Below, piece after piece: positions 637 to 40,486 of a stretch of DNA of 45,839 nucleotides. The position numbers and the translations under genes were made by a program. Location: NCBI GenBank assembly GCA_900767325.1, contig CAAFYT010000089.1:1-45839 (forward strand). Direction: 5' to 3'. Numbering within the stretch: position 1 is the stretch's first letter; each line of letters opens with the position of its first letter. The notes beneath the pieces were generated by a model, which was given only the letters and a program-made list of their open reading frames with translations, was not told the origin of the DNA and made no database searches. The DNA is from Kiritimatiellia bacterium (lineage in GTDB: Bacteria; Verrucomicrobiota; Kiritimatiellia; RFP12; UBA1067).

Positions 637-645
637 GGGCTGAAG

Positions 646-2052: not shown

Positions 2053-2080
2053 AGCGGCGCGGCGCGTTCGGGGTTCGGGG

Positions 2081-4731: not shown

Positions 4732-4739
4732 TTTTCCAC

Positions 4740-4769
4740 TTGCCAGTCGGTTCCGTTTTTTGATATAAT
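4740..4769 (+). promoter_or_regulatory. Sigma70-type promoter for the giant-gene block (-35 TTGCCA, 18-nt spacer, extended -10 TGaTATAAT)
   Basis: TTGCCA 4740-4745, TG 4761-4762, TATAAT 4764-4769, in an AT-rich island within GC-rich DNA. The ATG at 4779 is only 9 nt downstream, with no SD. Confidence 0.6.
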
Positions 4770-4778
4770 TCACAGAGA

Positions 4779-7604
4779 ATGCGGAAGGTATTCACAAGTG
4801 TGCTTTGCTGTCTTGTCGGCATGGTCGCGTTGACTTCGGTCGCGGCGATGCCGGGCGTGGCGCTCAATGCGATCGACTTCGCCAACGAGGATCTCTGGGG
4901 GAAGATGCCGCGCTATGGGCTTGACGAAGCCGGTCGGGAGGAGGATCCGGGCAAGTTCACGGGCATCTGCTACTGGTATTATGGGGGGGCGAACGGCAAC
5001 GGGAGCGTGATCACGGACTATTCGCTTCGCGCGGGCGAGATGGCGTACGACGGTTTCGGCGAGGGGAATCCGAAGCCGTTCTACATGCACGAGCGCGTGG
5101 TGAACGAGGGCTTTCTGGACGTCGGCTCGCTCGCGCCGCTCTGCCGCACGTTCAACGAGGCCTCGAGCAACGGCGTGTCGGCGGCGCAGTCGATTCCGGC
5201 GAAGAACGATCTCTTCGTCGATGCGCTGGTGAAGTTCGTGCCGCGGTTCGTCGAGGCCGGCGAGATTCCGGACGACGGGCTCGGGGGGAAGGCGAAGTTC
5301 ATGGTCTGCCTCGCGACGTCGGCGGCGGATCCGAGCCAGACGAATCTCGTCGTCACGGCGGGCTACTATGGGGCGGACGGCGCGCTGATTCCGCGAACCT
5401 ACGTCGCGGCGAACAAGGTGCAGTCGGGCCGGTGGTATCGTCTCACGGCGCGGGCGTTCAGGAACGCGGCGAGCAACGACGCGCAGAAGGAGCCGGCGTT
5501 CGCGCTCTTTCTCGACGGGGCGCTCGTGACGTGCGCCGAGGGCGCGTACGAGATCGGCGACGATGCGGCGAAGGTGCGCGATACGTTCGCCGGCAACGAG
5601 TACTACTCCAAGCGGGCGCTCTTCCCGCCGCTGCGCGCGTTCGAGCCGACGCCGAAGCTCTCGGGCTTCGCGATGAGGGGGTGCGCGGGGGTCGACGATT
5701 TCGGCGTGGTCACGAGCGGCAATCCGCTCTCGCGGAGCGTGAACGAGATCGAGATGACGGTGGCGATCGATCCGGAGAAGGTCGAGGGCGTGGTCTGCAC
5801 GATCGTCGGGGGCGCGAAATACGAGATGCCCGCGGGCGCGGGCGAGGTGACGTTCCCGGTCGGGCGCGGCGCGCGGGTCGAGATCGCGGCGTCGGCGCGC
5901 GAGGGCTACCGGCTCCACGAGGGGCTGACGATCCTCGGCAACGTGGGGGCTGTGGAGTCCGTCGAGGATCGCACGGTCACGCTGTCGGGCGAGTTCGACG
6001 ATGCCGCGCGCGTCGTGGCGAGGATCAATGCGGGAGACGCGTACTTCCTGGCCGGAGGAAAGGTCTTCGAGCGGATGGACGAGGCCATCGAAGCGGCGGC
6101 GCTGGCAGAGGACCGCACCCTCGCGCTGGGCAAGGACGTCACGCTCGATCCGACGACCGAGAACGGCCAGATGCGCGTCAAGGCCGGGTACGAGATCACG
6201 CTGGATCTGCGGGGGCGCGGGATTACGGGCGAACATTTCATGGACGAGTCGACGATCTACGACCAGGGGCGGCTGACGGTCGTCGACTCGGTCGGCGGCG
6301 GCTTCATCCACGCGCCGGGGACGGCGATCGAGGTCGTCAACACGAACGCGGCGCTGGTGGCCAACCACGAGTTCGCGGTGCTGACGCTCGGCAGCGAGGC
6401 GCTGGCGGACAAGGTCTTCACGGTGCGCGGGCGCGTACGGTGCGATCAGGGGGAGCTCGTGGTGAAGGGCGGAACGTACCTGACGCCGTGGGATCTGGAG
6501 CCGACCGACGAGTTCTATCTGGCGGACTACGTTCCCGATTCGCGCTACGCGATCGTCAGGGTCGGCTCGCCGGAGGTGATCGAGGGGCGCGACTGTCGCT
6601 ACTGGGGCGTCACGTACGACGGGAAGATGATGGTCCGCTTCAAGGTCGAGCACGGCGCGGTCTCGCCGGAGTGGACGACGGTCGAGAAGGGCTCCACGGT
6701 CGAGCGTCCGTTCGTCGAGGCGACGGGCTACACCATTGTCGACTGGGTCGACGAGGCGACGGGGCTGAGCTGGAACTTCGAGCTGGACACCGTCGAGAAG
6801 GACGTGACGATCGCCGCGCGGCAGGAGCTCGACGTCTATTCGATCGACTACGCGGGCGCGACGATCTCGCCGATGGCGCCCGATTCGTACACGCTCGAGA
6901 TGGAGCGCACGCTGGTTCCGCCGCCGTCCAAGGCGCGCGAGAACTACGTCTTTGCGGGCTGGCTTGCGGAAGGGAAGGGGAAGTACGTGGATTTCGTCGG
7001 CAAGGGCGCGGTCTACGTCGGCACGACGGAGCGCGTGATCGGCGATCTCAGGCTGGTCGCGCAGTGGACGCCGGCGGAGATCGTCTGGACGAACGCGGGG
7101 AGCGGGCTTTCGGAGTCGAACGGAACGTACGCGGGGAGCTGGTCGTTCACGATCCCGGCGAAAGGATCGATCGGCCCGGGCGACAGGATCGTCATCGACC
7201 GGATCTCGCTGTGCGTGGTCAATCCGCACCTCTACCCGAAGACGGCCGCGCGGCTGGCCGTGACCAATGCGGGGATGAAGGTCGTTTCGCGCGCGCGCAC
7301 ATACGGCCTCGACGAGGAGACGAAGGAGTACGCCGTCGCGCGCCGGCTTCCGAACGGGAGGGCCGCCGTCGACTACGAGTTCGACGATCTCGTCGTCGAG
7401 GCGGGCCGCATGAACTTCGCCTGCCTGGTGGATGGGGAGGCGAACCCCATGCGCGGCTTTCTGCGCTTCACGCTCATGCCCGGAGGGAACGACGCGGTGT
7501 TCGGCAACTGCACGCAGCCGGGGGGAGATCCGGAGTGCGCGCGCTATATGGAGTTCTGCCCGACCTACGAGGTGAGCGGACATCTGGAGGAGGGGGATAG
7601 ATGA
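4779..7604 (+). CDS. Secreted 941-aa protein: N-terminal LamG-like jelly-roll region plus two Listeria-Bacteroides (Flg_new) repeats
   Basis: Signal peptide MRKVFTSVLCCLVGMVALTSVAA. Flg_new-like units are GSTVERPFVEATGYTIVDWVDEATGLSWNFELDTVEKDVTIAA (~6640-6830) and ENYVFAGWLAEG...GDLRLVAQWTP (~6838-7075). The post-signal motif is shared with the next gene. Confidence 0.85.
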   Translation: MRKVFTSVLCCLVGMVALTSVAAMPGVALNAIDFANEDLWGKMPRYGLDEAGREEDPGKFTGICYWYYGGANGNGSVITDYSLRAGEMAYDGFGEGNPKPFYMHERVVNEGFLDVGSLAPLCRTFNEASSNGVSAAQSIPAKNDLFVDALVKFVPRFVEAGEIPDDGLGGKAKFMVCLATSAADPSQTNLVVTAGYYGADGALIPRTYVAANKVQSGRWYRLTARAFRNAASNDAQKEPAFALFLDGALVTCAEGAYEIGDDAAKVRDTFAGNEYYSKRALFPPLRAFEPTPKLSGFAMRGCAGVDDFGVVTSGNPLSRSVNEIEMTVAIDPEKVEGVVCTIVGGAKYEMPAGAGEVTFPVGRGARVEIAASAREGYRLHEGLTILGNVGAVESVEDRTVTLSGEFDDAARVVARINAGDAYFLAGGKVFERMDEAIEAAALAEDRTLALGKDVTLDPTTENGQMRVKAGYEITLDLRGRGITGEHFMDESTIYDQGRLTVVDSVGGGFIHAPGTAIEVVNTNAALVANHEFAVLTLGSEALADKVFTVRGRVRCDQGELVVKGGTYLTPWDLEPTDEFYLADYVPDSRYAIVRVGSPEVIEGRDCRYWGVTYDGKMMVRFKVEHGAVSPEWTTVEKGSTVERPFVEATGYTIVDWVDEATGLSWNFELDTVEKDVTIAARQELDVYSIDYAGATISPMAPDSYTLEMERTLVPPPSKARENYVFAGWLAEGKGKYVDFVGKGAVYVGTTERVIGDLRLVAQWTPAEIVWTNAGSGLSESNGTYAGSWSFTIPAKGSIGPGDRIVIDRISLCVVNPHLYPKTAARLAVTNAGMKVVSRARTYGLDEETKEYAVARRLPNGRAAVDYEFDDLVVEAGRMNFACLVDGEANPMRGFLRFTLMPGGNDAVFGNCTQPGGDPECARYMEFCPTYEVSGHLEEGDR

Positions 7605-10600
7605 ATAGGATCCTCGCCGCCCTTCTGATCGGATCGTGCGTCTCGACCGCTGCGGCGGCCTCGGCGCTCCTGCCGGGTTCGATCGACTTCAACTCCCATG
7701 CGCTGTGGGGCAAGGAGGTCTTCTTCGGGCTGGACGACAACGGCTCCACGACGGGCGCGACGCGGTGGTATACGGGCGAGGAAACGCCGGCGGCGAGCAT
7801 CGTGAAGTACAGCGGGCTTGCCGCAGGCTGCCTCAAGACGGTCGCGGGCAGCGAGGTGCATCGGACGATTGCGGCGCTGTCGCGCGACGAGGAGCGCGGG
7901 CCGAAGCCGACGGGCGGCGTGGTCATTCCGCAGGACGGACTCTACATCGACACGCGGATCTCGATGACGGTCGGTACGCGCGTCATCGTCGACGCCACGC
8001 CGCTCGACAGCGAGAAGATCAGCTGCTTCCTGAGGACCGTCGAGGCGGAGGGCTCGACCGAATTCGTGATCCACGCGGGTTCCGCCGCGGGCGCGACGGA
8101 CTACGTCACGGATGCGAACGTGCTGCCGAACGTGGAGTTCCAGCTGACGTTCCGGGCGGTGCCGACGCCAGAGGGCGAGATCGTCTTCGAGGTGTTCGCG
8201 GATGGCGCGAAGGTCACGAGCGGCGAGACGGAGGCGTTTCCGAGCTTGCAGAAGGCGGCGGATTCGGACTATGCGCTCCGGCTCTATTCGCTTGGCGTGA
8301 GCGGCGTGGCGCGGGTGGACAAGATCAATTTCTCGAAGGTCGATCCGCGCGGCGACCCCGACTACGACAAGGACGACGTCTCGATGCTGCGCGAATCGGC
8401 GGAGATCACGGTTGCGAAGTATCCGCGGAACGGCGCGACGCTCTACGACTTCCCGATCCTGGTGCGCGTGACGGAGAGCGCGATCAAGGGCTTCCGCTAC
8501 GATCGCGCGGCTTCCAACGGCGGCGACATCCGCTTCACGGACGAGAACGGGCGCCTGATTCCGCACGAGATCGACGTGTGGGATCCGCTCGGCGAGTCGC
8601 TCATCTGGGTGAAGGTTCCCGTCTTCCGCTATGGCGCCAGGATCACGATGCACTGGGCGATCCAGAAGGGCACGGCGGCGCCGGTCGTGAACGCGAGCGA
8701 CGTGTGGTCGGACTACGCGGGCGTGTGGCACATGGGCACGCAGGCGCTGACGGTGTTCGGCGACTCCTCGGGCCATGGGCTCACGGCGCACGCGGCCGTT
8801 TCGCCCACGCAGGCGGCCTCGTCGAAGATCGGTCGGGCGGCCGAGATGGTCTGGGATCAGGGCGTGACCAACCTGACGGTCGAAGCGGCGTACAAGCGCT
8901 ATCTCGGCGAGAACGGAAACTTCACCTTCACCTCGTGGCACATCGCCCCGACGATCCCCGACAACCGCTTCGGCGCGTCCTCGGTCTTCGCGTTCGGCAC
9001 GCTCGAGAAGCTCGTCAACTCCCCGTCCGGATGGGGCGGCGGCAACCCGTGGGGCAAGGCGCACCTGACGTATCGCGCGGGCAACGGTGTGGATAGCTAC
9101 GTCGAGAACCGGTCGATCGCGGACGTGACGAAGAACTGGTTCCATTCCGCTTTCGTCAACGAGGGGGGCACCAACTACATCGCCTACCTGAACGCCGCGC
9201 CGCTCACCGGCTACGTCGGGCAGCGCAGCATCGTGCCGAACGACAATCCGCTGCGGTTGATGACCGAGGGCTTCTGCGCGGACGAGGTCCGCATCACGGG
9301 GAAGATCCGCAGCGCCGAGTGGATCAAGGCGGAGTACGAGCAGGCGCAGATCCGCAACTACCTGACCTACGGGAGCGGCAACGTCAAGGGAACGGACAAC
9401 TACTGGCTGGAGGAGCCGTACGTGGAGCCGAACGCCGTGACGACGGAAGACGTCGAGACGATGGAGTTCTTCGCGGGCGTTTCGCGCTATGGCACGCCGT
9501 TCCTGCAGTATTTCGACGCGGCGGGCAATCAGCTTTCGGAGCGGCCCACGACGGCGGGTGTCTACAAGGCGGTGGCGATCGTGAGCCCCGGCGTGCGCGA
9601 CGGGCTGCGCGTGGAGATGACGTTCGTGATCTTCGAGAAGCGGGCGTATCACGAGATCACGGGATTCGACCGGGTGATGCTCTTCAACTCCGACGATTCG
9701 GCGCAAAGCCCCGTGACGCTGCAGGGCTACTTCGATGTCGACGGCGCCACCAACCGCGTGTGGACTCACGAGGGCGAGGCCTGGACGGGGCAGGGGCGGT
9801 TCGTCCGGCCGGGAACGACGCACGTCTACCGCGAGCCCCTGACGCGGCGCGAGCTCTGGCGCTTCGAGCACGCGCGAATCGGCAACCTCTTCCGGAGCGA
9901 CGACGAGCTCGAGCCGGGGATGAACTTCCTGCCGTGGGGCGGTGCGGCGCGGCGCTTCGACGACTCGGAGATGCCGGCCAACGCGCAGCGCTACGCGGGT
10001 ACGCTGATCTTCCAGAACACGACGGATGCGCGGGCCACCTCGCCGCTTTACGCCGAGGGCGTCGGAACGGTGTACTTCGACGCGGTCAATGCGAACGGAG
10101 GCTATCGGAACGCGGTGAAAGTCCAGGTCTGCGGCGAAGATGCGGGAGGCGAGTGGGTCGATGTGCCGCTTGATGTCTTCGCCATCACCAATGGCGTTTG
10201 GTCGGAGTCGATGAGCACGAACCGGGCGATGGAGGCCGTGCTGGCGATGGAGAAGGCCGAAGGCACGACGAACTGGTTCTATCGCGTCCGCGCGACGGTC
10301 AACACCAACGAGGCGGTGCGCGTGAGGATCGTCCGCTCCGACTCGAACTGGAACGCCGACGACGAGGCGGATGGCGACGGGCTCGTCTCGATCGACAACA
10401 TCATCGTCTCGTATCCGGCGATGGGCATTGCGCTTGAGCAGTTCGGCGCGCCGGATGATCCGGGCAACCCCTACTTCCAGGGGTGGAGATCGCCGTTCGA
10501 CATCGCCTTCCCGGCGGTCGAGGACCTCGGCAAGATGCACGGGCAGGTGAAGGTCCGCTACATCACCAACAACACGAACCAGCTCGACAGCACGTTCGTC

Positions 10601-13600
10601 GGCGCGTTGACGATGAAGTACCGTTGGCGTTACCTGAATCAGGCGATCGGCGACTGGAGGGAACTGCCGCTCCACGTGAGCGCCGACGATCCGACGCGCT
10701 TCGTGACGGCGGATACGCTCGACGGCGATGGCCTGGGCGACATCGAGTACACCTTCGCGGCCACGGTCAATGCGCCGTTCTACGAGTATTGGGACTATTC
10801 AGGACTGCCGGGCTGGACATGGCCCGACAAGTACACGGAGCGGCGCGGCAATGTGCGGATCTCGGCGCTGGAGGACGGCGTCTACACGCCGAGCCACCTC
10901 TCGCCGGCTCTGGGAACGGACTACTTCATCCGCCTGCGTGCGGGGAAGAGCGATTACGAGGGCTTCCGGGTGCACATCCGCACGACTGATCCGGACGGCG
11001 TCACGAAAGACGAGGCCGTCTGGATGCGGCTCGCCGACGACCACATCTGGCGCGGGTTCTATCCCTCGCCCACGAATGGCGTCAACACGCTCCTCTACAA
11101 AATCGAGGCGATGAACCGCCAGCTCAACGCCGAGAGCGACTACCAGTGGTCGACCAACTGGTACCACGGCGCGAACAAGGTTTCGCTGCCGGTCAGCGAC
11201 GTGCTGGAGGAGGGCGAGACGTGGACGCGGATCCCGTGCGACGACATCGCCGGTTATCTGATGTTCCAATTCGAGGATGCGACGCATTCGCTCTCCGTCA
11301 TCCACGCGGACTACCAGAACTTCAACCTGTGGACGGATGCGAATCTGCCCGACGGAGACGCCTACGGGCACTTCATCGGCACGTCGGCGGATCTGACCAA
11401 GACCTCGGGCGTTGCGCGCACGGCCAGGCGGTACGACGATACGTTCGCGGGGCTGAAGGAGACGCAGTCCGAGAACGAGCTCTTCTGGGCGGAGCGCTTC
11501 AACGTGAACGACACGAACGGGATGTGGACGATCGAGAAGCCGTTCACGGGCAATGTCTCGACGCCGCGCGCCTGGACGGCCGGAAACGGCATGTGGGTCT
11601 GCGAGCGGTATCGTGAGTTTGGGGGGCCGACCAATTCGATCGCCTTGCAGATGAAGGGCGAGGGCTATGGCACGCTGATGTTCCCCCAGGGCTGCAATCC
11701 GTTCCCCAAGGGCATCGAGAGCTTCTCCTACTCGGCGCGCATCGCGCAGTCGTACGCGGACATCCGCTCGTTCAGCTACTACTCTGCCGACGGCGCGAGG
11801 GACATCGGCAACGGCACGTTCGTCGTGCCGTGCGCGATGACCGTCACGAACCGCCAGGGGTCGGTCGATTTCACGGGCGTCGGCGCGGTTTCGGCGCTGG
11901 CGCACTACCGCGTGGCGCAGGGCGGCTACGAGGCTCGGGTTGAGCGCATCCGCGCCAACAAGGTTCAGCTCGGGATCTACCGACGGCTGCCGGACGGCAC
12001 GGCGACGTTGCTCAAGCAGTCCGCGGAATTCGATTACCAGGGCACGGGATTCGCAGGCGGATTCGATTCGAGCGGGCAGATCGCCTTCGGCGCGCTCTTC
12101 ATCTCCTGCACGAACACGGCCTCGAGCGTCCGCATCACCGCCGGCATCCTGAGCAAGGGCAAGGCGATCAGCAACAGCAAGATGTTCGACGGCGTCAATT
12201 CCTACGCCAAGATCAGCTACGAGGATACGTCCGCGGGACGCTTCAAGAACGGCACGTATGGCGTCGGGTCGAAGGATTGCCCGGCGAAGTTCGTGCGGCC
12301 GATGTTCTCGCCCGCGCCGGTGAAGTGGACGGCTGACGAGACGACGGCGGAGACGCTCGCAATCGAGGAGCAGGTCTGCATCCGGACGGATTCCGATTAC
12401 GGGAACTGGGAGATCTTCAATCGTCTGGAGAAGTACGCGTATCAGGTTTCGCTCCGCACGTACTACGGTTTCGAGGCGCCGGTTCCCTATCAGTATCTCA
12501 TCGTTGAAACTTCGCCGCACACGAAGAACCAGTGGACGCCGATCGCCACGAACATCGTGAGCTCCTTCGCCTTCGAGAACTATGTGACGCCGGTGTTCGC
12601 GGCGGACGATACCGACATCCGCCTCACCACGGGCAGCGAATACGGCAGCTGCGACATCGTCATCGACAACGCGGTCGTTCGCCAGTGGCGCGGCGAGAAC
12701 TTCGACGACGGCGCGAACACGACCTACTTCTACGACATCGCGAACGGTGCGCCGACGAACTTCGTGTACACGACGGCGTGGATTTCGTCGCGGCACGAGG
12801 TTCTCCTCTCGCCGATGCGTACGACCGTCGACCAGATCGACGCGCATCGTCCCGCGGGCGTTCGCGCGCCGCTGATGGACGGGCGTTCGGGCCGCGGGCT
12901 GGGTCTCGGGTACTTCAGCGTGGCGTACCATGATGCGGATCCCCGTGCGCGATTGATTGTGCAGGCGTACACGAACGACGACGTGTCGGTGAACGTGCTC
13001 CGCACGATTTCGAAGTCGTTCGAGGGATGGACGGACATCGAGACCTTCAACTTCGCCGACATGACGGCAGACGAGCGCGCGAACGGCGTCATCTCGTGCT
13101 ACCTCGGGCAGCACGGCGTCAAGGGCGTGATGCGCGTGATCATCGACCCCGAGCTGGTGAAGGAGGCGCACGATCCGTCGTTCAACCCGGAGAACGACCC
13201 GGACTACGGCCGTGTGAGCATCGTGATGTCCAGCGCGAAGGACAATCCCGACCTGGACAAGGGCAGCTGGTGGGGCTGGAACCTGCGTACGACGAACGAT
13301 CCGATGAAGTGGCTGTTGGAGGACGGAACGCGCAACGACACGCGTGTGGAGGGGCTGGCCTTCGCGCTCAACAACTCGATTGCCGACGATGTGCGTTCGG
13401 ACGACATCTACGATCTGCACAAGCCGTTCCTGCAGACGCCGATCCTGACGACCAACTGCATCGGGGAGATTTCGTTCAAGGCGCGCAAGTACGATGTCAA
13501 CGATCCGTCGCCGACGGTCTCGATCTACGGCATGAAGGTCTACGATCCGACGGCAGAGGACGGCAAGTTCACCCTGCTGACCAATATCGTCGTCGATTGC

Positions 13601-16081: not shown

Positions 16082-16085
16082 GTGC

Positions 16086-16115
16086 TTGCATGGATATGTC
16101 AAAAAGTGCTAAAAT
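16086..16115 (+). promoter_or_regulatory. Sigma70-type promoter (-35 TTGCAT, 18-nt spacer, extended -10 TGcTAAAAT) just after the giant gene 2 stop
   Basis: TTGCAT 16086-16091, TG 16107-16108, TAAAAT 16110-16115. ATG 16123 lies 7 nt after the -10, with no SD. Confidence 0.55.
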
Positions 16116-16122
16116 ACGAACG

Positions 16123-16506: not shown

Positions 16507-16529
16507 TTTCAAAGGAAACGAGGTCTACG

Positions 16530-29087: not shown

Positions 29088-29115
29088 CAGGAACGGAAAG
29101 GGAAGTGATAGGCAG

Positions 29116-31292: not shown

Positions 31293-31299
31293 GGATGGG

Positions 31300-32289
31300 A
31301 TGACGAAGGAACGGCAACTGAATCGGGCGCGCGAGGTCTTCGAGGTCGAGATCGAGGGGCTGAAACGCACCCGCGATTCGCTGGGCGAGTCCTTCACGTC
31401 GGCCATTCGGCTCCTCTTGGCGACCGTATCCTCCGGCGGTATCGTCGTGGTGACGGGCGTTGGCAAGAATCTGCATGTTGCGGAGAAGATGAGCGCGATC
31501 TTCGCCTCCACTGGAACGCGTTCGATCGTGCTTAATCCCGTCCAGGCGATGCATGGCGATCTGGGAATGGTCTCCGCCAACGATGTGCTGATCGCGTTGT
31601 CGTTCAGCGGCGAATCCGACGAGGTCCTTCGCCTCATACCGGCAATTCGCCGACACGGACTGAAGGTTGTTTCGCTCACGGGCAACGCGGCGTCGAATCT
31701 GGCTCGGCTTTCGGATATTCACATCGAGATCCCCTGCGGGAAGGAGGCGTGTCCGTTCGGCATGGCGCCGACCAACTCGGTCACGGCGACGCTGGCGATG
31801 GGCGACGCCCTCGCGATGGTCATGATCGATGCGCGCAAGTTTTCCATCACGGACTACGCCGCGAACCATCCGGCGGGAGCGATTGGACGCGCCCTGGTCC
31901 TCAAGGTGTCCGACATCATGCGTACGGGCAGCCGGCTTGCGCTCATTCCGCCGACCGCGACCGTGATGGATGCGGCGCTGGCGATGACGCAGTCCAAGGG
32001 CGGCAGCGCAGTCGTCGTCGACGGAGCGGGCAAGCTGCTCGGCATCTTCACCGATGGCGACTTCCGCCGCATTCTGACGAGCGCGCCGGAGGGCGCCGCG
32101 CTTCTGGCCTCGCCGATCGAGCGGCATATGACGAAGAAGCCGCAGTTCGTGCATGATGACGCCTATGCGGCCGAGCTTCTGAAGATCTTCGAACGGAAGC
32201 ACATCGACGATTTGCCGGTGTGCGATCGAACGGAGAAGGTGGTGGGGCTTGTGGATCTACAGGACCTGCCGAAGATGAAGGTACTCTGA
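31300..32289 (+). CDS. kpsF: Arabinose-5-phosphate isomerase, KpsF/GutQ family (SIS + tandem CBS)
   Basis: SIS motif VVVTGVGKNLHVAEKMSAIFASTG...ALSFSGES. The C-terminal part has two CBS-like units (...LLGIFTDGDFRR..., ...VVGLVDLQDL). Confidence 0.85.
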   Translation: MTKERQLNRAREVFEVEIEGLKRTRDSLGESFTSAIRLLLATVSSGGIVVVTGVGKNLHVAEKMSAIFASTGTRSIVLNPVQAMHGDLGMVSANDVLIALSFSGESDEVLRLIPAIRRHGLKVVSLTGNAASNLARLSDIHIEIPCGKEACPFGMAPTNSVTATLAMGDALAMVMIDARKFSITDYAANHPAGAIGRALVLKVSDIMRTGSRLALIPPTATVMDAALAMTQSKGGSAVVVDGAGKLLGIFTDGDFRRILTSAPEGAALLASPIERHMTKKPQFVHDDAYAAELLKIFERKHIDDLPVCDRTEKVVGLVDLQDLPKMKVL

Positions 32290-32310
32290 TTTCAGGAAAG
32301 GAATACGACT

Positions 32311-33033
32311 ATGAAGAAACTGATGATGGTGACGGCGATGATGGCGACGGCGACCGCCCTGGCGGCCGGCGGCATGAAGCACGGCGCCGTGCAGGCGGGT
32401 GCCGGAAACCTCGAGGGCCCTTCGACCGAGGGCAAGGACGCGAAGATCGTTATCGACGTCTACCCGAAGCTCAGCAAGCAGGCGCTTCTCTCGGCGCCCT
32501 CGATTGGCGAGGCCTCGACCATTGGTCGGTGCTGGACGGGGCGTCCGCGCCAGTGGATCGTCCTGGAGACGAAGTACACCACATTCGCCAAGTGCCTTGA
32601 ACAGCTGACGTTCACCTGGCATGTCGTTCTGGATACGAAGACGGCGACCAACAAGGATCGCGACGACCAGTCCCGGCTCGCCCCCTACTCGTACTTCACG
32701 ACGACGACGACCTACGCCAACATTCCCCGCGGATCGCACGCCGCGTCGGTTTGCCTGCATCCCTCCTATCTGGAACGTTTCGGCGAGCCGGTCGCGGTCG
32801 GAATCGTCATCTCCAACCAGAACGGCGACATCCTCGGCGGCGATACGGTCGCCATCGGAAAGGACGTCGCCACCTTCAAGGGCAAGAAGTTCTGGGAGGA
32901 CGAGAAAGTCATGAACGCGATCTATCGGGATGACATCCCCATGATTGAGCGTCGCCAGGGCCTGCAGGATCGCTCCAAGACGATCTGGGCGCTGATCAAC
33001 CCCAATGACTACGAGCTGGTGGTGCAGCAATGA
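32311..33033 (+). CDS. Secreted hypothetical protein in the Amuc_1102 position of the pilus-like cluster
   Basis: Signal peptide MKKLMMVTAMMATATALAAGG, RBS aggaaagga upstream. I recognise no motif. The assignment rests only on gene order relative to the PilM-like, Amuc_1100-like and secretin genes. There is no prepilin G/FTLIE motif. Confidence 0.7.
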   Translation: MKKLMMVTAMMATATALAAGGMKHGAVQAGAGNLEGPSTEGKDAKIVIDVYPKLSKQALLSAPSIGEASTIGRCWTGRPRQWIVLETKYTTFAKCLEQLTFTWHVVLDTKTATNKDRDDQSRLAPYSYFTTTTTYANIPRGSHAASVCLHPSYLERFGEPVAVGIVISNQNGDILGGDTVAIGKDVATFKGKKFWEDEKVMNAIYRDDIPMIERRQGLQDRSKTIWALINPNDYELVVQQ

Positions 33034-34649
33034 GCAAGAAATTCCTGACTCTGAACATCGGCGCCTCGACCGTCGAGCTGGCCGAATACGAAGCGGGCGC
33101 GAAGGGCGAGCTGATGCTCGTCAACTACGGTGTGGCGAAGTTGGCGGCGCCGTTGGATGGTGGCAACGCCGAGACCATCCTCTCCCCCGCGCTGATGGAG
33201 ATCGTCCGCGAAAAGGGCATCCGCCCCGGGAAGGTGGCGATCGCGGTCTCTGGGCAGATGGTGTTTCCGCGGTTCGCTGCGGTTCCGCTGGCGGGCGGCA
33301 ACGAGAAGTTCGAGCAGATGATCCGTTACGAGATCGAGCAGAACATCCCGTTCCCGATCGACGCCATGGTTTGTGACCATCAGGTTCTGGGTGAAACGGA
33401 GAACGGCGACAAGTCGGTCATGATCGTCGCCGCGAAGATTGATCAGGTCGAGGCGCTGACTTCGGCGATCTCGGCCGTTGGATTCGAGCCGGAGCTTGTG
33501 GATGTCTCGCCGATCGCCCTGACCAACGTGATGCGCTTCAACAGCGCCGATGGCGAAGAGTGCAAGGTGCTTTTGGATATCGGCGCGAAGACGACCTCCC
33601 TGGTGATCGTCGAGGGCGACAAGCTCTACAACCGTTCGATTCCGGTTGCGGGCAACACCATCACAAAGGAGATCGCCACGGCCCTCGGATGCACGATGGA
33701 AGAGGCCGAGGCGCTCAAGCTCGAGAAGGGCTATGTCTCGATGGGGGGCGTCTCCGAAGACGAGGACGAGGTCGCCGACGGGATTGCGAAGGCCGCGCGC
33801 GCCGTGCTGACCCGCCTGCACGCCGAGATCTCGCGGTCGATCAACTTCTACCGCGGGCAGCAGCACGGCGGCACGCCGACCCGGCTCTACCTGACGGGTG
33901 GCTCGGCCCTGCTGCCGCAGATCGACGACTTCTTCCGCGAATCCCTGCAGATCGAGGTCGAGTTCTTCAATCCCTTCGAACGCATCGCAATCGGCCCCAA
34001 GGTCGATTCGTCGGCGCTGGAGAAGATCGACGGCGCGGTCATCGCAACGACTGCCGGCCTCGCACTTCACCTAGCGAAGGCGGCGCGCTTCTCCATCAAC
34101 CTCCTGCCGCCGTCGATCATCCAGGCGAAGGCCGAGCGGGCTCGCGTGCCGTTCATCGCGATCGGCGGCGCGACGCTGGCTCTCGCCCTGGTTCTCGTGG
34201 GGATCGGCGTCAAGTTCGACGCCGCGGTGATCGACGCGAAGCGCGAGGGCATCGAGGGACAGGTCGCCGCGCTGGACAGGTGCGATAAGGCGATCAAGAC
34301 CGTCGAGGCGAAGTACAAGACGATCGAGGCCGAAGCCGAAGCGCTGCGCAAGCTATTGGCTGATCGCGCGGCCACGGTGCAGCGGGTGAATGCCGTACGC
34401 AACTCCATCCTCGCCGGCACGGGAATGTGGATCGAGCGGTGGGATGCGAACGGCGTGACCTTCCGCTACTGGTTCGACCGCATGAAGAAGAACAACGGCG
34501 GCAAGCCCGTTGGCGAGCTGGTCGCGGACAAGATCAAGCACAGTGGCGCGGTCGATGCGGATTCGAAGGTCGTGGTCAACAACATGATCGAACTCGGCAA
34601 GGACGATACCAAGGCACGGCAATTCTCGGTGGAGTTTAAATTCAAATGA
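33030..34649 (+). CDS. pilM: PilM-like actin-fold ATPase fused to a PilN-like TM/coiled-coil region (Amuc_1101-type)
   Basis: LNIGASTVELAEYE, VDVSPIALTN, LLDIGAKTTSLVIVEG...NRSIPVAGNTITKEIA and LYLTGGSALLP are PilM/FtsA-like. These are followed by INLLPP, the TM segment VPFIAIGGATLALALVLVGIGV, and a coiled coil. ATGA overlap with the upstream gene. Confidence 0.85.
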   Translation: MSKKFLTLNIGASTVELAEYEAGAKGELMLVNYGVAKLAAPLDGGNAETILSPALMEIVREKGIRPGKVAIAVSGQMVFPRFAAVPLAGGNEKFEQMIRYEIEQNIPFPIDAMVCDHQVLGETENGDKSVMIVAAKIDQVEALTSAISAVGFEPELVDVSPIALTNVMRFNSADGEECKVLLDIGAKTTSLVIVEGDKLYNRSIPVAGNTITKEIATALGCTMEEAEALKLEKGYVSMGGVSEDEDEVADGIAKAARAVLTRLHAEISRSINFYRGQQHGGTPTRLYLTGGSALLPQIDDFFRESLQIEVEFFNPFERIAIGPKVDSSALEKIDGAVIATTAGLALHLAKAARFSINLLPPSIIQAKAERARVPFIAIGGATLALALVLVGIGVKFDAAVIDAKREGIEGQVAALDRCDKAIKTVEAKYKTIEAEAEALRKLLADRAATVQRVNAVRNSILAGTGMWIERWDANGVTFRYWFDRMKKNNGGKPVGELVADKIKHSGAVDADSKVVVNNMIELGKDDTKARQFSVEFKFK

Positions 34650-35632
34650 ACAAGACAAAGACGACAGTGGCGATTACCGGGGGAGCGAGCGTCCTACTCG
34701 TTCTTCTGGCGGCAGGTTTCGTGTGGATATCGTATTCGACGAAGACCGTGGCCATCGAAGGCGATTACGAAGAGGGTACCGACGGCTACGAGACCGTACT
34801 CCTGAAGGCGGAGCAGCTCTCCCGCCGGAGCGTCTATCCCTGCAAGGAGAGCATCGAGACGATCGAGGCGAACATCGAGAAGCTGGATTCGTGGAAGGCC
34901 GAGGCGTTGGCGCTCGCCGCGCGCGGCGATTGGTCGCCCGATCCGACGGAAAGCGCGCCGCAGCTGAAGGCGCGCCTCCGCGACGAGGCGGGTCAGCTCA
35001 TGAAGCTCCCCGGTTCCGTCGGCGGCGTGCTGGTCAAGCCGGACTTCGCCTTCGGCGCGGCGTTCAAGGACTACATCACGGGCGGCAAGATGCCCGCCGA
35101 GGCTGACATCCCCGCGCTCCAGCGCAACTGGTACGACATCTCGATGATCGTGACGCTGCTGTCGCAGAGCGGCATCACCGAGCTGACGGATGTCGCGGTC
35201 AAGACCGCTGCGAACGAGCCGGAGACCAACGCGAAGCCTCAGCGCACGGCGAAATCCCGCAAGCCGGCGGCCGAGCCGCCGTCCTCTGCGGTGACCTATT
35301 CGTTCAGCTTCTCCACTCGTCCCGCCGGTTTCGTCAAGGCGATCAACGCGCTGACGACGGCCAATCGGTTCATCGTGATCGACGATTTCACAATCCAGCG
35401 GCAGGGCGATCCCATTCGCGAGGCGCTGGGCGGAGAGGACGACAAGCGCGCCGACCAGGGTTTGTCGCGCCGCGCGCGCGGACGGCGGAGGGGGTCTGAA
35501 CCCGAGCAGGAGGAAGGCGCCGTGACGGGCGGAATCGTCACCGATCCGCAGGCCGGCGCGCCGTTCAACGTCGTGTTGACGGTGACCACGCACGATTTCA
35601 AGTCCAAGCAGACGAAGGAGGAGGCGAAATGA
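34646..35632 (+). CDS. Amuc_1100-like (PilO-like) pilus-associated membrane protein
   Basis: N-terminal TM, coiled coil, P/A/E-rich linker, and a C-terminal core PAGFVKAINALTTANRFIVIDDFTIQRQ...FNVVLTVTTHDFKSKQTKEE. This parallels my recollection of Akkermansia Amuc_1100 (...VLKAMNAITGMQDYLFTVNSIRIRNE...VFVQVSLNLVHFNQPK...). ATGA overlap. Confidence 0.7.
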   Translation: MNKTKTTVAITGGASVLLVLLAAGFVWISYSTKTVAIEGDYEEGTDGYETVLLKAEQLSRRSVYPCKESIETIEANIEKLDSWKAEALALAARGDWSPDPTESAPQLKARLRDEAGQLMKLPGSVGGVLVKPDFAFGAAFKDYITGGKMPAEADIPALQRNWYDISMIVTLLSQSGITELTDVAVKTAANEPETNAKPQRTAKSRKPAAEPPSSAVTYSFSFSTRPAGFVKAINALTTANRFIVIDDFTIQRQGDPIREALGGEDDKRADQGLSRRARGRRRGSEPEQEEGAVTGGIVTDPQAGAPFNVVLTVTTHDFKSKQTKEEAK

Positions 35633-36741
35633 GCTCCAGTTCCGAGAAGAAGAACTTCTTCGCGACCCACTACGATTGGCTGATCGCCGGCGTTGGTGTG
35701 CTTGCGGCGCTGGCCGGACTCCTCGTGCTCGCCGTTTCGCTCGGCACGGATCCCGATGACGCGGCCGATGAGGCGAAGGCGAACGTCGCGCGGATGAAGC
35801 CCGCCAAGACCGGCGTGGAGGCGCTCGACTTGGCGGCGTACCAGTCGGCCGTCAAGGTGACGCGCAGTCCCGCGCTGATCAACGAGCTCCCCGAGAAGGG
35901 GGAGAATTTCCTTGCGAGTGAACGCCGCGTGATCTGCAAGGGCTGCAAGAAGGTCATTTCGGGGGATGTGAAGAAGACGCCCGAGTGCCCCTATTGCCAC
36001 GTTCCGCAGGAAGTCGAGCAGGTGCTGGTCGTCGATGCCGATGGCGACGGTCTTCCCGACGAATGGGAGAAGAAATACGGCCTCAACATGAACGACCCCT
36101 CCGACGCCAACGCCGATCCGGATGGCGATGGGTTCACGAATCTCGAGGAGTTCGCGGCGAAGACGAATCCGAAGGACCCGAAGGATCATCCGGACTACCT
36201 CGACTCCCTCGCCATCCAGCCGCCGCTGAAGCAGACGTTCATGCCGTTCGTCTTCACCAAGGCGACGCAGATTCCCGCCGGCTGGCGCTGCGAGTTCTAC
36301 GACGCCAAGACGCGCAACGACTACGGGCGACTGGGCCTGACGATGTCGGCGATGCTGGGCGAGGAGATCGGCGCAAGCGGCTTCGTTCTGAAGAGCTTCG
36401 AGAAGAAGGAGACGAAGGTTCCGATCGAAGGCGGCGAAGGCATGATGCGCACGAAGGACGTGTCGGAGGTCCTGTTGCAGCGCAAGCGTGACGGCAAGCA
36501 GATCCGGATGGTCTTCTCCGAGAGGAACAGCGAGGCACCGATGCCGGTCGACGTCCAGGCGACGCTTCTCTACGAGCGGGGCGCGGTCAAAACCTTCGAG
36601 GTCGTCAAGGGCTCCGAGGTCGATCTCAGCGGAAACAGGTATGTCGTGGTCGATATTGCGGAGACGAATCAGCGCATCAAGGTCACGCTGCGCAACCCGC
36701 TCACGGGCAAGCAACGCACCCTTGAAGCCCTTGAATCGTAA
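35629..36741 (+). CDS. Amuc_1099-position protein: N-terminal TM, CxxC...CxxC zinc ribbon, two TSP3 repeats, C-terminal beta-rich domain
   Basis: TM WLIAGVGVLAALAGLLVLAV. Zinc ribbon ICKGCKK...ECPYCH (35926-36003). TSP3 pair DADGDGLPDEWEKKYGLNMNDPSDANADPDGDGFTNLEEFAAKTNPKDP (36031-36180). ATGA overlap with the upstream gene. Confidence 0.7.
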   Translation: MSSSSEKKNFFATHYDWLIAGVGVLAALAGLLVLAVSLGTDPDDAADEAKANVARMKPAKTGVEALDLAAYQSAVKVTRSPALINELPEKGENFLASERRVICKGCKKVISGDVKKTPECPYCHVPQEVEQVLVVDADGDGLPDEWEKKYGLNMNDPSDANADPDGDGFTNLEEFAAKTNPKDPKDHPDYLDSLAIQPPLKQTFMPFVFTKATQIPAGWRCEFYDAKTRNDYGRLGLTMSAMLGEEIGASGFVLKSFEKKETKVPIEGGEGMMRTKDVSEVLLQRKRDGKQIRMVFSERNSEAPMPVDVQATLLYERGAVKTFEVVKGSEVDLSGNRYVVVDIAETNQRIKVTLRNPLTGKQRTLEALES

Positions 36742-36759
36742 ACGAATTTATTGTATAAT
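36731..36759 (+). promoter_or_regulatory. Sigma70-type promoter for the secretin gene (-35 TTGAAT, 17-nt spacer, -10 TATAAT)
   Basis: TTGAAT 36731-36736 overlaps the last codons of the upstream gene. TATAAT is at 36754-36759. Here a normal leader follows, with SD aaggagaagg 36771-36780 and ATG 36789. Confidence 0.6.
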
Positions 36760-36788
36760 GTAAAGGCAATAAGGAGAAGGCGGTCAGT

Positions 36789-39700
36789 ATGACGAATATC
36801 AATAAGTTTTTCGCCCTTGGTACGGTGGTATCGATGGCTGTCGCGTGCGGTGTTGTCTGTGCACAAGACGACTTGGATGGCTTGCTTCAGGAGCTTGAGG
36901 CCGAATCGGTCGCGAAACCGGTCGCAACGCCTCCGGCCGAACCGGCGTCTGCCGCCGTGGTCGCGCCCGTCGCCGAGCCGGCGCCTGCACCTGCTGCCGA
37001 GCCGGCGCCTGCTCCCGTTGCCGAGGTTGCGCCTGCCGCTGAGCCGGTTGCCGTTCCGACGCCTGTTGCTGAGGTCGCGCCCGTCGCCGAGCCGGCACCT
37101 GCCGCCGCGCCTGCTCCGGAGTCCGCCGTCGATGCCGAGTTGATTGCCAATCTCAGGGAGACCGAGAAGTTGCGTCGTCAGTCGCGTGACGCCCAGGCGA
37201 AGCGCGAGGTTGCGGATGCGCGAGTGTGCATGGGCAATGAGGAGTATAAGGACGCAATCAGCCATTACGGTCAGGCGCTGAAGCTCTTCAACGACAGCGA
37301 GGCCTCGAAAGAGCTTCGCAAGGAGTGCGAGCAGGGGATCGCTGAGGGACTCTACCGCGCGGCTTATCAGGAGCACGACCTCGGGCGCCTCGATCGCGCC
37401 AAGGATCTCATGGAGAAGGCGCTCAACCGCCGTCATCCGAAGGCGCGGAGCGTGCTGGAGCGCTGGAGCTCCGAGAGCGCGGAGGTCGTGAAGGCCAATG
37501 CGGGGGACGATTTCAAGCACGTCGTCAATGACGAGCAGTACAAGGCCGATCGCGAGCAGATCCGCAAGCATCTGCGCCGCAGCCGCCAGTACATGTCCGT
37601 TCGCGATCTCGACCATGCGCTTGAGGAGTGCGAGATCGTCTTGGCGTTCGATAGCTACAATCAGGATGCGATTCGCCTGCGCAAGGCGATCGAGCGGAAG
37701 CGCAACATCATTCTCGAGCAGGAGCACGAGCAGGCGCGCGACGGCATGATCGCGGACGTGGAGAAGGTGTGGCGGCCCGTGTACGCGGTGAACGCGACCC
37801 GGTTCAACGAGACGTCCGCCGGAACGGTCAAGACCCAGACGGGCGAGGATCCCGAGAAGACGCAGGAGCAGGAGATCGAGCGCCGCATGAAGGAAATGCG
37901 CTTGCCCTCGATTTCGTTCAAGCCCCCGGCGACGATCATCGAGGCGGTGGACTTCTTCCGCGGCGCGTCGAAGGATTTCGACCGTCCCGACATTCCGGAA
38001 GGCAAGCGCGGCTTCAACATCATGCTGAGAACGCCAAAGGGCGCGCTCCGTCAGCAGGCGCAGGACGAGGGCAGCGAGGGCTTCTCGGCCGGCGAAGACG
38101 ATTCCGCCGCGTCGAACGGCCTTGAGCCGATCTCCACGATCGTCGCGAGCGACATTTCGTTCTACGAGGCGCTGAAGCTCGTCTGCGAATCGGTCGGCTA
38201 CAAGTTCCTCATCCAGGGGCAGTTCGTGATGGTCATGCCGAAGAACATGTCCACCGACGAGATCCTGTCGCGCAAGTACGACGTCCCCGAAGCGTTCATC
38301 GAGCGCGTGACCGCGGCTTCCGACGAAGTCAAGCAGATGCGCAGTTCCTCTTCCGGCAGTTTCGGCAGCAGTTCGAGCGGCGATGCGGCGGAGGAAGGCC
38401 AGGAGCGGGATTGGAAGCTCTTCTTCTACAAGATGGGCGTAGAGTGGCCCGAGGGCGCCGAGATCACCCACATCAAGACCCTGGGCAAGCTCTACGTGCG
38501 CAACACGCGCGAGAACCTCGCCGTGTTCGAGAAGGTGCTGGAGGAACTGGGCATGCAGCCGCCGCTGATCGAGGTCGAGACGCGCTTCGTCGAGGTGATG
38601 CAGGAGGATCTCAACTCCCTGGGCTTCGAGTGGATCCTCAATAGCGACTATTCGCTGAACCTCGGCAATGCGCTGGGCAAGGCGCTCGGCGTGAGCAACG
38701 GAACGTGGGGCAGCGAGGGCGGTTCGCGCAGCATCACGCGCTCGGGTGCCGAAACCGGCACATCGACGGATTCGGTTATCACGAGGACTCAGGGCACGGG
38801 GTCTTCCACCACCATCAGCGGGGAGTCGTTCCAGGGCAACGAGAGCCGCTACAACCTGGGCAACAACTATAGCCGGAGCACCGTGTTCAACAATCGTCCG
38901 GGCAATTCGGACTACATGAACAACTATTGGATCCGCGACCGCGTGGGCGATGGGCGCAACATCGGCATCAATGCGTTCGGCGGCAGTTCCGACTATGCGA
39001 ACGGAAACCGCTACCTCTCCACGATGGGGAACCACATCACGGGCAGTGAGGTTCCGATCAACGACCAGTTCATGCGCGTGAACGCGTTCCTGGGCGAAGC
39101 CGATCTCTCGCTCATCCTCCACATGCTCTCGCAGCGCAGCGACACGGATCTGCTTTCCGCGCCGAAGGTGGTGACGAAGTCCGGCGAGAAGGCGGTCATG
39201 AAGGTCGTGGTCGAGTACCTGTATCCGACGGACTACAACGTGCAGCTGCAGTCGAGCTCGTCCAACAGCGGTGGCTACGGCGGTAATTCGCAGTCGGCGA
39301 TTTTGGCCGTCGTCGAGCCGCAGTCGTTTGCGATGCGCGAGGTGGGCGTGATTCTCGAGGTTCTGCCGACGTTCTTCGAGGCCAACGGCGGAACGATCGA
39401 CCTCGAGCTTTCGCCGAAGGTCGTGGATGAGCCGCAGTGGATGGATTACGGCGTCGAGCTGCCGTTTTCGGGCAACAGCTCCTCGCTCCAAAGCTTCCAG
39501 GGCATCGGCGAAATCTTCACCGGCCTTGCGGATGCGTTAGGCGCGATCGGCGCGACGCTTGACGACGTGACCAAGAACGCGATGGCGGTCTCGGCCACCG
39601 AATCGGCCACGGCGGCGCTGGACAACCTCACGGGCAGCTCCGGCAACAACGATCCCAGCAAGAACAAGTACAAGGCGCCGATGCGCCAGCCGTTCTTCCC

Positions 39701-39989
39701 CGTGCGTTCGATCGAGTCCAAGGTCTCGATTACGCCTGGTTCGACCGTGGTCATGGGCGGTCTCATCACCGAGCAGCGCAAGGCGATGGATGACAAGGTT
39801 CCCTTCCTCGGCGACCTGCCGTTCATCGGGCGGCTCTTCCGTAGCCATGCGGAGCAGACGGTGAAGAAGAACCTGCTCATTTTCGTGACGGCGCGTCTAA
39901 TCACGCCGTCGGGCCGCGAGGATCGCCGGAACAACATCGACTTGAGCGCCGAGCCGAATGTGACGCCGGCGCCCAAGGCGGAGTCGTAA
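36789..39989 (+). CDS. pilQ: Secretin (PilQ/GspD superfamily; Amuc_1098-type), 1066 aa with P/A-rich linker and TPR-like N-terminal region
   Basis: Signal peptide, then a P/A/V/E-rich tract and TPR-like helices (~37190-37720). N0-like ISFYEALKLVCESVGYKFLIQ. Secretin core IEVETRFVEVMQEDLNSLGFEW, LLSAPKVVTKSGEKAVMKV and the C-terminal signature VPFLGDLPFIGRLFRS...LLIFVTARLI. Confidence 0.9.
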   Translation: MTNINKFFALGTVVSMAVACGVVCAQDDLDGLLQELEAESVAKPVATPPAEPASAAVVAPVAEPAPAPAAEPAPAPVAEVAPAAEPVAVPTPVAEVAPVAEPAPAAAPAPESAVDAELIANLRETEKLRRQSRDAQAKREVADARVCMGNEEYKDAISHYGQALKLFNDSEASKELRKECEQGIAEGLYRAAYQEHDLGRLDRAKDLMEKALNRRHPKARSVLERWSSESAEVVKANAGDDFKHVVNDEQYKADREQIRKHLRRSRQYMSVRDLDHALEECEIVLAFDSYNQDAIRLRKAIERKRNIILEQEHEQARDGMIADVEKVWRPVYAVNATRFNETSAGTVKTQTGEDPEKTQEQEIERRMKEMRLPSISFKPPATIIEAVDFFRGASKDFDRPDIPEGKRGFNIMLRTPKGALRQQAQDEGSEGFSAGEDDSAASNGLEPISTIVASDISFYEALKLVCESVGYKFLIQGQFVMVMPKNMSTDEILSRKYDVPEAFIERVTAASDEVKQMRSSSSGSFGSSSSGDAAEEGQERDWKLFFYKMGVEWPEGAEITHIKTLGKLYVRNTRENLAVFEKVLEELGMQPPLIEVETRFVEVMQEDLNSLGFEWILNSDYSLNLGNALGKALGVSNGTWGSEGGSRSITRSGAETGTSTDSVITRTQGTGSSTTISGESFQGNESRYNLGNNYSRSTVFNNRPGNSDYMNNYWIRDRVGDGRNIGINAFGGSSDYANGNRYLSTMGNHITGSEVPINDQFMRVNAFLGEADLSLILHMLSQRSDTDLLSAPKVVTKSGEKAVMKVVVEYLYPTDYNVQLQSSSSNSGGYGGNSQSAILAVVEPQSFAMREVGVILEVLPTFFEANGGTIDLELSPKVVDEPQWMDYGVELPFSGNSSSLQSFQGIGEIFTGLADALGAIGATLDDVTKNAMAVSATESATAALDNLTGSSGNNDPSKNKYKAPMRQPFFPVRSIESKVSITPGSTVVMGGLITEQRKAMDDKVPFLGDLPFIGRLFRSHAEQTVKKNLLIFVTARLITPSGREDRRNNIDLSAEPNVTPAPKAES
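36915..37120 (+). repeat. Imperfect tandem/dispersed coding repeats encoding a Pro/Ala/Val/Glu-rich linker
   Basis: gccgagccggcgcctgc occurs at 36972-36988 and 36996-37012 (24-nt period). The 24-nt string ggtcgcgcccgtcgccgagccggc occurs at 36959-36982 and again at 37073-37096. Confidence 0.85.
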
Positions 39990-40076
39990 GAAGCATATCG
40001 CAACAGGAGCATTTGGCTACAAGGGGGGTCGTGTTGGATGCGCGGGCTCCCTTTCCAGTTTCGAAAGGAGAATCGG

Positions 40077-40460: not shown

Positions 40461-40486
40461 TGGTCACGAGAAAGGAGATCGAGAAA

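Follow-up and report, generated by a model that had tools for sequence, protein, structure and literature searches.

Do very large exported proteins belong to the pilus-like machine beside which they are encoded, or do the two only share a chromosomal neighbourhood? This question is raised by contig CAAFYT010000089.1 of a Kiritimatiellia bacterium, of which the full stretch of 45,839 nucleotides (nt), hereafter the window, was analysed. On its + strand, genes for three giant proteins (G1, G2 and G3) and a small lipoprotein lie upstream of a five-gene cluster related to the Amuc_1102-1098 (MUL2) locus of Akkermansia. In this study, we found that this cluster is a divergent homologue of the MUL2 locus, and that a G3 gene stands in the same place in every informative relative. 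The reading that we favour, with a probability of about 0.5, is that of a conserved and co-expressed envelope neighbourhood, in which the giants are surface adhesin or glycan-binding proteins and in which their association with the machine is mainly one of synteny. Some dependence of the giants on the machine is conceivable, and we hold it only tentatively.

The pilus-like cluster and the giant proteins

Gene calls were taken from the listing of open reading frames (ORFs) and from Pfam and NCBIfam scans of the main ORFs of the window. The genes and protein features at issue are the following (aa, amino acids).

4779-7604, + strand: G1, 941 aa, exported, with a Flg_new (Listeria-Bacteroides) repeat
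7601-16081, + strand: G2, 2826 aa, exported, with DUF2341 as its sole Pfam domain
16123-16506, + strand: small coiled-coil lipoprotein between G2 and G3, 127 aa, lipobox LIGC
16530-29087, + strand: G3, 4185 aa, exported, with Laminin_G_3, TSP3-type Ca-binding motifs, an FG-GAP motif and a C-terminal string of beta-sandwiches
24261-24581, + strand: Laminin_G_3 (concanavalin-A-like lectin) domain of G3, Pfam E-value (E) 6e-21
29052-29084, + strand: extreme C-terminus of G3, CYKVVLEEDVR, the window's variant of a conserved terminal motif
29116-30258, + strand: ackA, acetate kinase
30255-31292, + strand: pta, phosphate acetyltransferase
31300-32289, + strand: arabinose-5-phosphate isomerase of the kpsF/kdsD type, with SIS and CBS domains
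32311-33033, + strand: p240, positional homologue of Amuc_1102 (MUL2A), with a Sec signal peptide
33030-34649, + strand: PilM fused to a transmembrane helix and a PilN-like region, Amuc_1101 (MUL2B) family
34646-35632, + strand: p328, Amuc_1100-like (PilO-like) bitopic protein
35629-36741, + strand: p370, Amuc_1099 family, at the position of PilP, with a transmembrane helix, CxxC...CxxC, two TSP3 repeats and a beta-rich C-terminal domain
36789-39989, + strand: secretin, Amuc_1098 family, 1066 aa, with a Pro/Ala-rich N-terminus and weak TPR matches

The genes from 32311 to 39989 are identified as a divergent homologue of the Amuc_1102-1098 locus by their NCBIfam families, by the fold of p328 and by the PF28178 and PF28028 matches of orthologues, and the order 1102-1101-1100-1099-1098 is present on one strand. 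For the PilM-N fusion, Amuc_1101_fam was by far the best NCBIfam family (E 1.7e-116, 390 bits, below the equivalog cutoff of 650), and Pfam PilM_2 was also matched (E 6e-41). The secretin, whose Pfam Secretin domain was found with E 1.3e-29, matched Amuc_1098_fam (E 7.4e-125) with 418 bits, which is about four times its GspD and PilQ scores and below the equivalog cutoff of 750, and p370 matched Amuc_1099_fam with 89.4 bits, above the curated cutoff of 50. The match of p328 to Amuc_1100_fam was weak (E 2.6e-8) and, with 33.6 bits, did not reach the cutoff of 180. Sequence searches of the PDB that used p328 and p240, the family profile of each, or p370 as the query returned no Amuc structures, and p328 was linked to Amuc_1100 only by fold comparison and NCBIfam. 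The ten best PDB fold matches of its AlphaFold model (pLDDT, predicted local distance difference test, 71.5) were Amuc_1100 structures (E 2e-7 to 1.4e-6, template modelling (TM) score to target 0.61-0.70), with PilO next, and its orthologues in related contigs have precomputed PF28028 (Amuc_1100) matches. No match to p240 itself was found in local Pfam, NCBIfam or PDB searches; its orthologues in the same position, with 35-62% identity, have precomputed PF28178 (Amuc_1102) matches.

No Pfam match to PilB/GspE, PilC/GspF, PilD, N_methyl or peptidase A24 was found among the window ORFs, and no prepilin motif of the GF[TS]L[IVL]E type in its six frames. The absence of an ATPase from the window is the normal state for such a locus, since operons of the pilMNOPQ type normally do not contain motor genes. 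In Akkermansia, the pilin and pseudopilin genes are located elsewhere in the genome, according to PMC13174399 and bioRxiv 10.64898/2025.12.30.696933. The same two sources and PMC5332112 describe MUL2 as a type-IV-pilus-like cluster with a PilO/PilN-like Amuc_1100 and an archaeal-pilin-like Amuc_1102, and tie it to mucin and glycan acquisition, attachment and pilus biogenesis. For the role in acquisition and attachment, the two sources cite genetic work in Akkermansia.

Two details of these proteins may be added. Residues ~102-122 of p370 (35932-35994), between the transmembrane helix and the TSP3 repeats, read CKGC...CPYC and may form a periplasmic-side zinc-ribbon or disulfide module. The Pro/Ala-rich N-terminal coding region of the secretin contains a 24-nt tandem repeat of 2.7 copies (36972-37036), so that length variation is possible.

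The giants amount to 7952 aa, and all three have hydrophobic, signal-like segments at the N-terminus. Pfam and NCBIfam scans of the whole proteins and of 500-aa segments found no autotransporter, RTX, PEP-CTERM, LPXTG or T9SS module, and their C-termini are not hydrophobic. G3 has a single Laminin_G_3 domain, which gave a weak PDB sequence match to the LamG region of pappalysin-2, and it contains the TSP3 motif D.D.DG..[DN]..E 12 times between residues 1460 and 3203. The same motif occurs twice in p370 and is absent from G1 and G2. Weak NCBIfam matches to CglD and MtsD were dismissed, the TSP3 repeats alone being sufficient to explain them. The first ~86 aa of G1 are similar to the start of G2, and a search with the first 1200 aa of G2 against 1.84 billion representatives gave 4113 relatives with E<=1e-3, most of them 2000-7000 aa long.

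An AlphaFold2 model of the last 1000 aa of G3 (pLDDT 70) is a string of beta-sandwich domains, in which no PilY1-type propeller was seen. Foldseek returned only generic matches for this model, all with TM <=0.11 when scaled to the query length: PitA, a pilus adhesin of Gram-positive bacteria, Ig domains of PrgB, FN3 arrays and macroglobulin domains. Only one partial homologue of the N-terminal 1000 aa (16530-19529) was found among 5.8 billion proteins, and this region has the lowest third-position GC content (GC3) of the block (0.64-0.76 vs 0.84-0.90 in its neighbours), the values for the whole gene and for the pilus genes being 0.76 and 0.84-0.86, respectively, and that of one N-terminal block of the gene 0.64. 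The single homologue and the low GC3 suggest a hypervariable or recently exchanged 'head'. In some relatives (L027 1-11586; L028 1-14167; L029 3-11296; L031 1-14491), the C-terminal module of G3 is a separate gene of 784-1545 aa that follows another giant of 1929+ to 5007 aa, and in L028 it is duplicated within the upstream 5007-aa protein. This variation points either to a fluid gene structure among the giants or to frameshifts in the assemblies.

From 4779 to 39989, the genes follow one another on the + strand with gaps, in order, of 47, -4, 41, 23, 28, -4, 7, 21, -4, -4, -4 and 47 nt, negative values being overlaps, and the terminator scan found no terminator-like site in the + strand intergenic gaps. 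Co-directionality is wider than this block, as every gene from 646 to ~42900 lies on the + strand, with a positive GC skew over the whole length. Upstream genes and promoter-like sites are as follows.

646-4731, + strand: genes for a GlcNAc-2-epimerase-like protein, RuvC, a TP_methylase protein and a radical-SAM protein
4740-4769, + strand: sigma-70-like promoter candidate 5' of G1, TTGCCA-18-TATAAT, 11/12 matches, extended TG; the number of such sites is not above shuffle expectation
36731-36759, + strand: promoter-like site overlapping the end of p370, 5' of the secretin, 10/12 matches; likewise not above shuffle expectation

These results bear on an earlier, sequence-only reading of the same DNA. 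It had described a tight single-strand block with gaps of -4 to 47 nt and without terminators, three exported proteins of about 7950 aa without a recognisable outer-membrane module, an Amuc_1098-1102-type cluster lacking PilB/GspE, PilC/GspF, prepilin and PilD genes in the window, and a motif common to the Amuc_1099-like protein and the third giant, and on all these points our scans agree with it. Its promoter-like islands at 4740 and 36731 were recovered and that at 16086 was not called, while promoter-like sites were not enriched over shuffled sequence (1 found vs 2.8 expected; 3 vs 3.2). The description 'LamG/TSP3 array' fits G3 only, as DUF2341 and Flg_new are all that was found in G2 and G1, respectively. 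The block of giants and apparatus exists as claimed, except that ackA, pta and kpsF lie between the two. 'ATPase-less' is true of the window, for which alone it was shown, and is ordinary for operons of this type. The remark that the substrate of the apparatus is unknown is out of date, given the role in mucin and glycan acquisition and in attachment that PMC13174399 and bioRxiv 10.64898/2025.12.30.696933 assign to MUL2 in Akkermansia.

Several other features of the window were recorded. The giant genes are crossed, on the opposite strand or in another frame, by shadow ORFs of great length, the longest of 2252 aa (19974-26732, - strand; 10799-16102, - strand; 4770-7583, - strand; 5432-7600, + strand), and they are a trap for gene callers, as a wrong-frame translation of G3 still shows 38% 'identity' to L001 over 1274 residues. 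Rfam and transfer RNA scans of the window gave no matches, and of four short arrays found by the tandem-repeat scan none is relevant. On the 3' side of the secretin, the stretch 40038-42932 encodes a small LA_2272-repeat protein, a PEGA-domain protein and a TPR lipoprotein (lipobox LLSGC), for none of which a homologue was found in any related locus. Such a TPR lipoprotein beside a secretin is reminiscent of pilotins such as PilF, PilW and Tgl.

Conservation of the arrangement in related loci

Related loci were collected by a genome scan with the p328 family profile (26 loci, all from gut or rumen metagenome-assembled genomes of the Kiritimatiellia type) and by a metagenome scan with the PilM-N profile (80 loci). 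Both scans stayed within one clade (50-77% identity in the PilM-N scan), and the statements below apply to that clade. In every locus that covers the region the order is invariant: a G3-like gene, ackA, pta, kpsF, 1102, 1101, 1100, 1099 and 1098. Where at least 1.5 kb upstream of ackA was available, a + strand G3 orthologue ended 0-215 nt before ackA in 55 of 55 loci, with 26-68% identity over the conserved C-terminal ~1100-1600 aa. The sequence-only reading had named a lack of conserved linkage in relatives as grounds for abandoning its proposal; instead, the G3 orthologue abuts the ackA-pta-kpsF-pilus genes in all 55.

The genes farther upstream are also kept, in fewer contigs. The order radical-SAM gene, G1, G2, small lipoprotein, G3 is the same in L112-L115 (the L114 contig ends just after G2), with the G1 orthologues (37-48% identity) directly 5' of the G2 orthologues, and the triad G2-lipoprotein-G3 recurs in the more distant contigs L117 and L118. 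Six full-length representatives of G2 orthologues are 42-52% identical to G2, and in L112, L113, L115, L117 and L118 the small lipoprotein has a homologue of 120-143 aa at the corresponding place. Both upstream giants have conserved motifs near their C-termini in L112-L118, namely CP[LT]YE[VI].G near the end of G1 (window 7560-7601) and W.ID.R[LM][RK]P..VE.L about 10-25 residues from the end of G2 (window 16036-16078). In L115, the region 5' of the array (1-7160) contains a bacterial alpha-2-macroglobulin gene beside a gene for a PBP1C-type transglycosylase/transpeptidase, and it is not syntenic with the window, where the epimerase, RuvC and methylase genes are found.

The neighbourhood also includes genes of another kind. 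ackA, pta and kpsF are conserved in the related loci exactly as G3 is. In 36 of 43 loci, the genes directly 3' of the secretin are coaE, rho and, in most cases, uvrA, other genes taking their place in the window. According to the Fig. 2 legend of PMC13174399, coaE and rho are likewise neighbours of the MUL2 locus in Akkermansiaceae. Thus, the pilus locus lies within a deeply conserved housekeeping neighbourhood and, because the conserved adjacency extends to genes without a plausible role in a pilus, conservation alone is no proof of function.

Shared neighbourhood, client proteins or coincidence

The favoured reading takes this confounder into account. The block would have been inherited vertically in gut and rumen Kiritimatiellia; it is tightly packed, is probably transcribed as a whole and joins two envelope modules. 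One consists of G1, G2, the small coiled-coil lipoprotein and G3, the giants being very large and predicted to be exported by Sec. The TSP3 repeats, lectin-type LamG domain and beta-sandwich strings of G3 correspond to the architecture of cell-surface adhesins or glycan binders, and we infer that the giants bind glycans or particles at the cell surface and are co-expressed with the machine. The other is the MUL2-type machine, which corresponds to the alignment-plus-secretin subcomplex of a type-IV-pilus-like apparatus; any motor and pilins that it has would have their genes outside the window. If Akkermansia is a guide, the machine may serve attachment to, and acquisition of, complex glycans.

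Several observations weigh against a linkage that is mainly syntenic. The junction between G3 and ackA is unbroken in all 55 loci, whereas that between the secretin and coaE is broken in 7 of 43 and in the window, with insertions in two more. When pairwise distances of the C-terminal module of G3 were corrected for the divergence of ackA, pta and kpsF in 13 dereplicated taxa, they correlated at 0.61-0.75 with those of the MUL2 proteins, as compared to 0.26 with coaE and -0.16 with rho; the MUL2 proteins correlate among themselves at 0.62-0.91. This covariation is suggestive only, because surface exposure is shared, taxa are few and they are not independent. Although G3 orthologues are only ~30% identical overall, 39 of 45 dereplicated sequences have the strand-like motif G-F-[FY]-[KR]-[VI]-x-[IVL] among their last 16 residues, and the columns of this motif reach a conservation of 0.78-0.89, as compared to a mean of 0.47. 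The motif, as a sequence pattern, may represent a docking or sorting strand. Its assignment as a T9SS C-terminal domain was rejected, as there is no TIGR04183 match and the lineage is wrong.

Two further observations come from related contigs. In L116 (542-12329), a G1-like gene of 869 aa is followed by a canonical gene of the prepilin type (310 aa, MKKAFTLIELL..., MKKAFTLIELLIVISIIG...) and then by a G2-like gene of 2746 aa, with a 4-nt overlap and an 8-nt gap. In five lineages, large signal-peptide proteins (652 to >1480 aa), mutually homologous, are encoded directly 3' of the secretin; Flg_new repeats were confirmed in the L014 copy, and in L014 and L043 the large gene is inserted before coaE. 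Their positions are as follows.

L014, 15429-19556: large post-secretin protein
L043, 17361-19925: large post-secretin protein
L046, 10487-12442: large post-secretin protein
L049, 17172-21620: large post-secretin protein
L098, 17169-21605: large post-secretin protein

Finally, the secretin is the sole outer-membrane conduit that the window offers to the giants.

These same observations would favour an idea that we regard as unlikely, namely that the MUL2-like machine has the giants as its true clients and that G3 is displayed or exported through the Amuc_1098-type secretin, either as an adhesin at the tip of a fibre or as cargo, in the manner of PilY1 or MshQ. On this account, G3, with G2, the lipoprotein and G1, would be exported by Sec and fold with Ca2+ in the periplasm, and its C-terminal strand would dock on a pilin-like or periplasmic component, for example the Amuc_1102-like or Amuc_1099-like protein. 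The short gaps beside G3 in all 55 loci, the rate covariation above the coaE and rho controls, the prepilin-type gene between the G1-like and G2-like genes of L116, the TSP3 repeats common to G3 and the Amuc_1099-like protein, the large signal-peptide proteins after the secretin and the lack of another conduit in the window all agree with it, as does the terminus of G3, given that PilC/PilY1 and MshQ are kept at the type IV pilus tip by a C-terminal strand of 6-10 residues (PMC13533445). However, the giants are separated from the machine by ackA, pta and kpsF, whose conservation is just as strong, the window is without a minor pilin or prepilin gene, the modelled last 1000 aa of G3 are generic beta-sandwich strings, the GC3 of G3 is below that of the pilus genes, and the covariation is confounded by the exposure and non-independence mentioned above. 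To our knowledge, G3, at ~450 kDa, is also far above the established clients of secretins in size. Furthermore, the neighbours of Akkermansiaceae MUL2 that are described in PMC13174399 are housekeeping genes, with neither giants nor ackA-pta-kpsF among those mentioned there. The PilY1-like logic of the sequence-only reading is thus weakened by the lack of a propeller in the modelled end of G3 and of minor pilins in the window.

Alternatively, the two modules may have no functional relation at all, which appears to us equally improbable. The giants would then be ordinary giant envelope proteins of PVC bacteria, which, after export by Sec, either pass to a conventional type II secretion system or lipoprotein pathway encoded elsewhere or remain periplasmic, and they would have come by chance to lie in a recombination-poor, leading-strand housekeeping neighbourhood beside the pilus locus. 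Such giants are indeed common, as the 4113 relatives of G2 illustrate, the whole window is co-directional with positive GC skew, and housekeeping genes are conserved in the same block. The G2-lipoprotein-G3 triad, moreover, has differing upstream neighbours (panD in L118; the radical-SAM gene and G1 in the window and L115), and in Proteobacteria the pilMNOPQ operons are likewise flanked by conserved, unrelated aro genes. Pure coincidence is harder to reconcile with zero exceptions in 55 loci despite divergence of G3 to ~30% identity, with the covariation of its rate with MUL2, with its conserved C-terminal motif and with a prepilin gene embedded in a paralogous G1-like/G2-like pair.

The boldest version of a link is that the giants are the missing extracellular part of the MUL2-type machine in gut and rumen Kiritimatiellia, with G3, together with G2, the lipoprotein and G1, docked by its GFFKV-type strand, through beta-strand addition of the kind used by PilY1 and MshQ, on the Amuc_1102-like or another pilin-like subunit and shown through the secretin as a glycan-capturing fibre tip or cargo. 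We consider this quite improbable; if true, G3 would be by far the largest known client of a secretin-based system. Amuc_1098-1102 underlies the much-studied host effects and mucin foraging of Akkermansia. In Kiritimatiellia, the genes of such a machine are invariably accompanied by that of a giant LamG/TSP3 protein, which may co-evolve with it, and by a conserved giant-lipoprotein-giant triad, and this linkage provides a concrete, testable candidate for an extracellular partner together with a defined C-terminal motif to mutate or model. Should synteny be all that connects them, MUL2-type loci and their deeply conserved coaE-rho neighbourhood would still be known from a wider range than before.

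Comparison with known systems

A literature search on Kiritimatiellota secretion systems gave nothing useful. Giant non-fimbrial adhesins (type I secretion adhesins of the RTX/BapA/SiiE type, autotransporters, T9SS cargo and PEP-CTERM proteins) resemble G1-G3 in size, in repetitive beta-sandwich architecture and in Ca-binding repeats. Unlike them, G1-G3 have N-terminal Sec-type signals and are without the C- or N-terminal modules that define those routes.

PilC/PilY1 and MshQ are likewise large, Sec-exported, Ca-binding proteins of adhesin type that are linked to pilus assembly genes, and the extreme C-terminal strand that they use (PMC13533445) may have a counterpart in the conserved, strand-like terminus of G3. 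In contrast to G3, which has 4185 aa and no adjacent pilins, they are ~1000-1200 aa in length and are encoded directly 3' of minor pilin genes (pilVWX or mshDOP). PilY1 also ends in a C-terminal beta-propeller, whereas the C-terminal 1000 aa of G3 are modelled as beta-sandwich strings.

With the pilMNOPQ operon of type IVa pili, the window shares PilM, a PilN-like segment, a PilO-like fold, a protein at the position of PilP and a C-terminal secretin domain, as well as the absence of motor genes from the operon and the housekeeping neighbours that are typical of it. It differs in that PilM and PilN are fused, that an Amuc_1102-like protein with a Sec signal leads the operon, and that the protein at the PilP position has a transmembrane helix, a Cys4 motif and TSP3 repeats. 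Moreover, its secretin falls well short of the equivalog cutoffs for PilQ and GspD, and no prepilin genes were detected nearby.

The Akkermansia MUL2 cluster itself has the same families in the same order, p240 being the putative fifth member (Amuc_1102) in the window, and it likewise has no ATPase or pilin gene inside the cluster. The sequences in the window are too divergent for phmmer or a family profile to find Amuc_1100 in the PDB, and three of the four matched NCBIfam families scored below their equivalog cutoffs. The host also differs, and the synteny survey of PMC13174399 makes no mention of Kiritimatiellia. coaE and rho follow the cluster both in Akkermansiaceae, as that survey describes, and in the relatives of the window, whereas in the window itself they are replaced; and in this clade, the cluster is preceded by ackA-pta-kpsF and by an invariably linked giant LamG/TSP3 protein.

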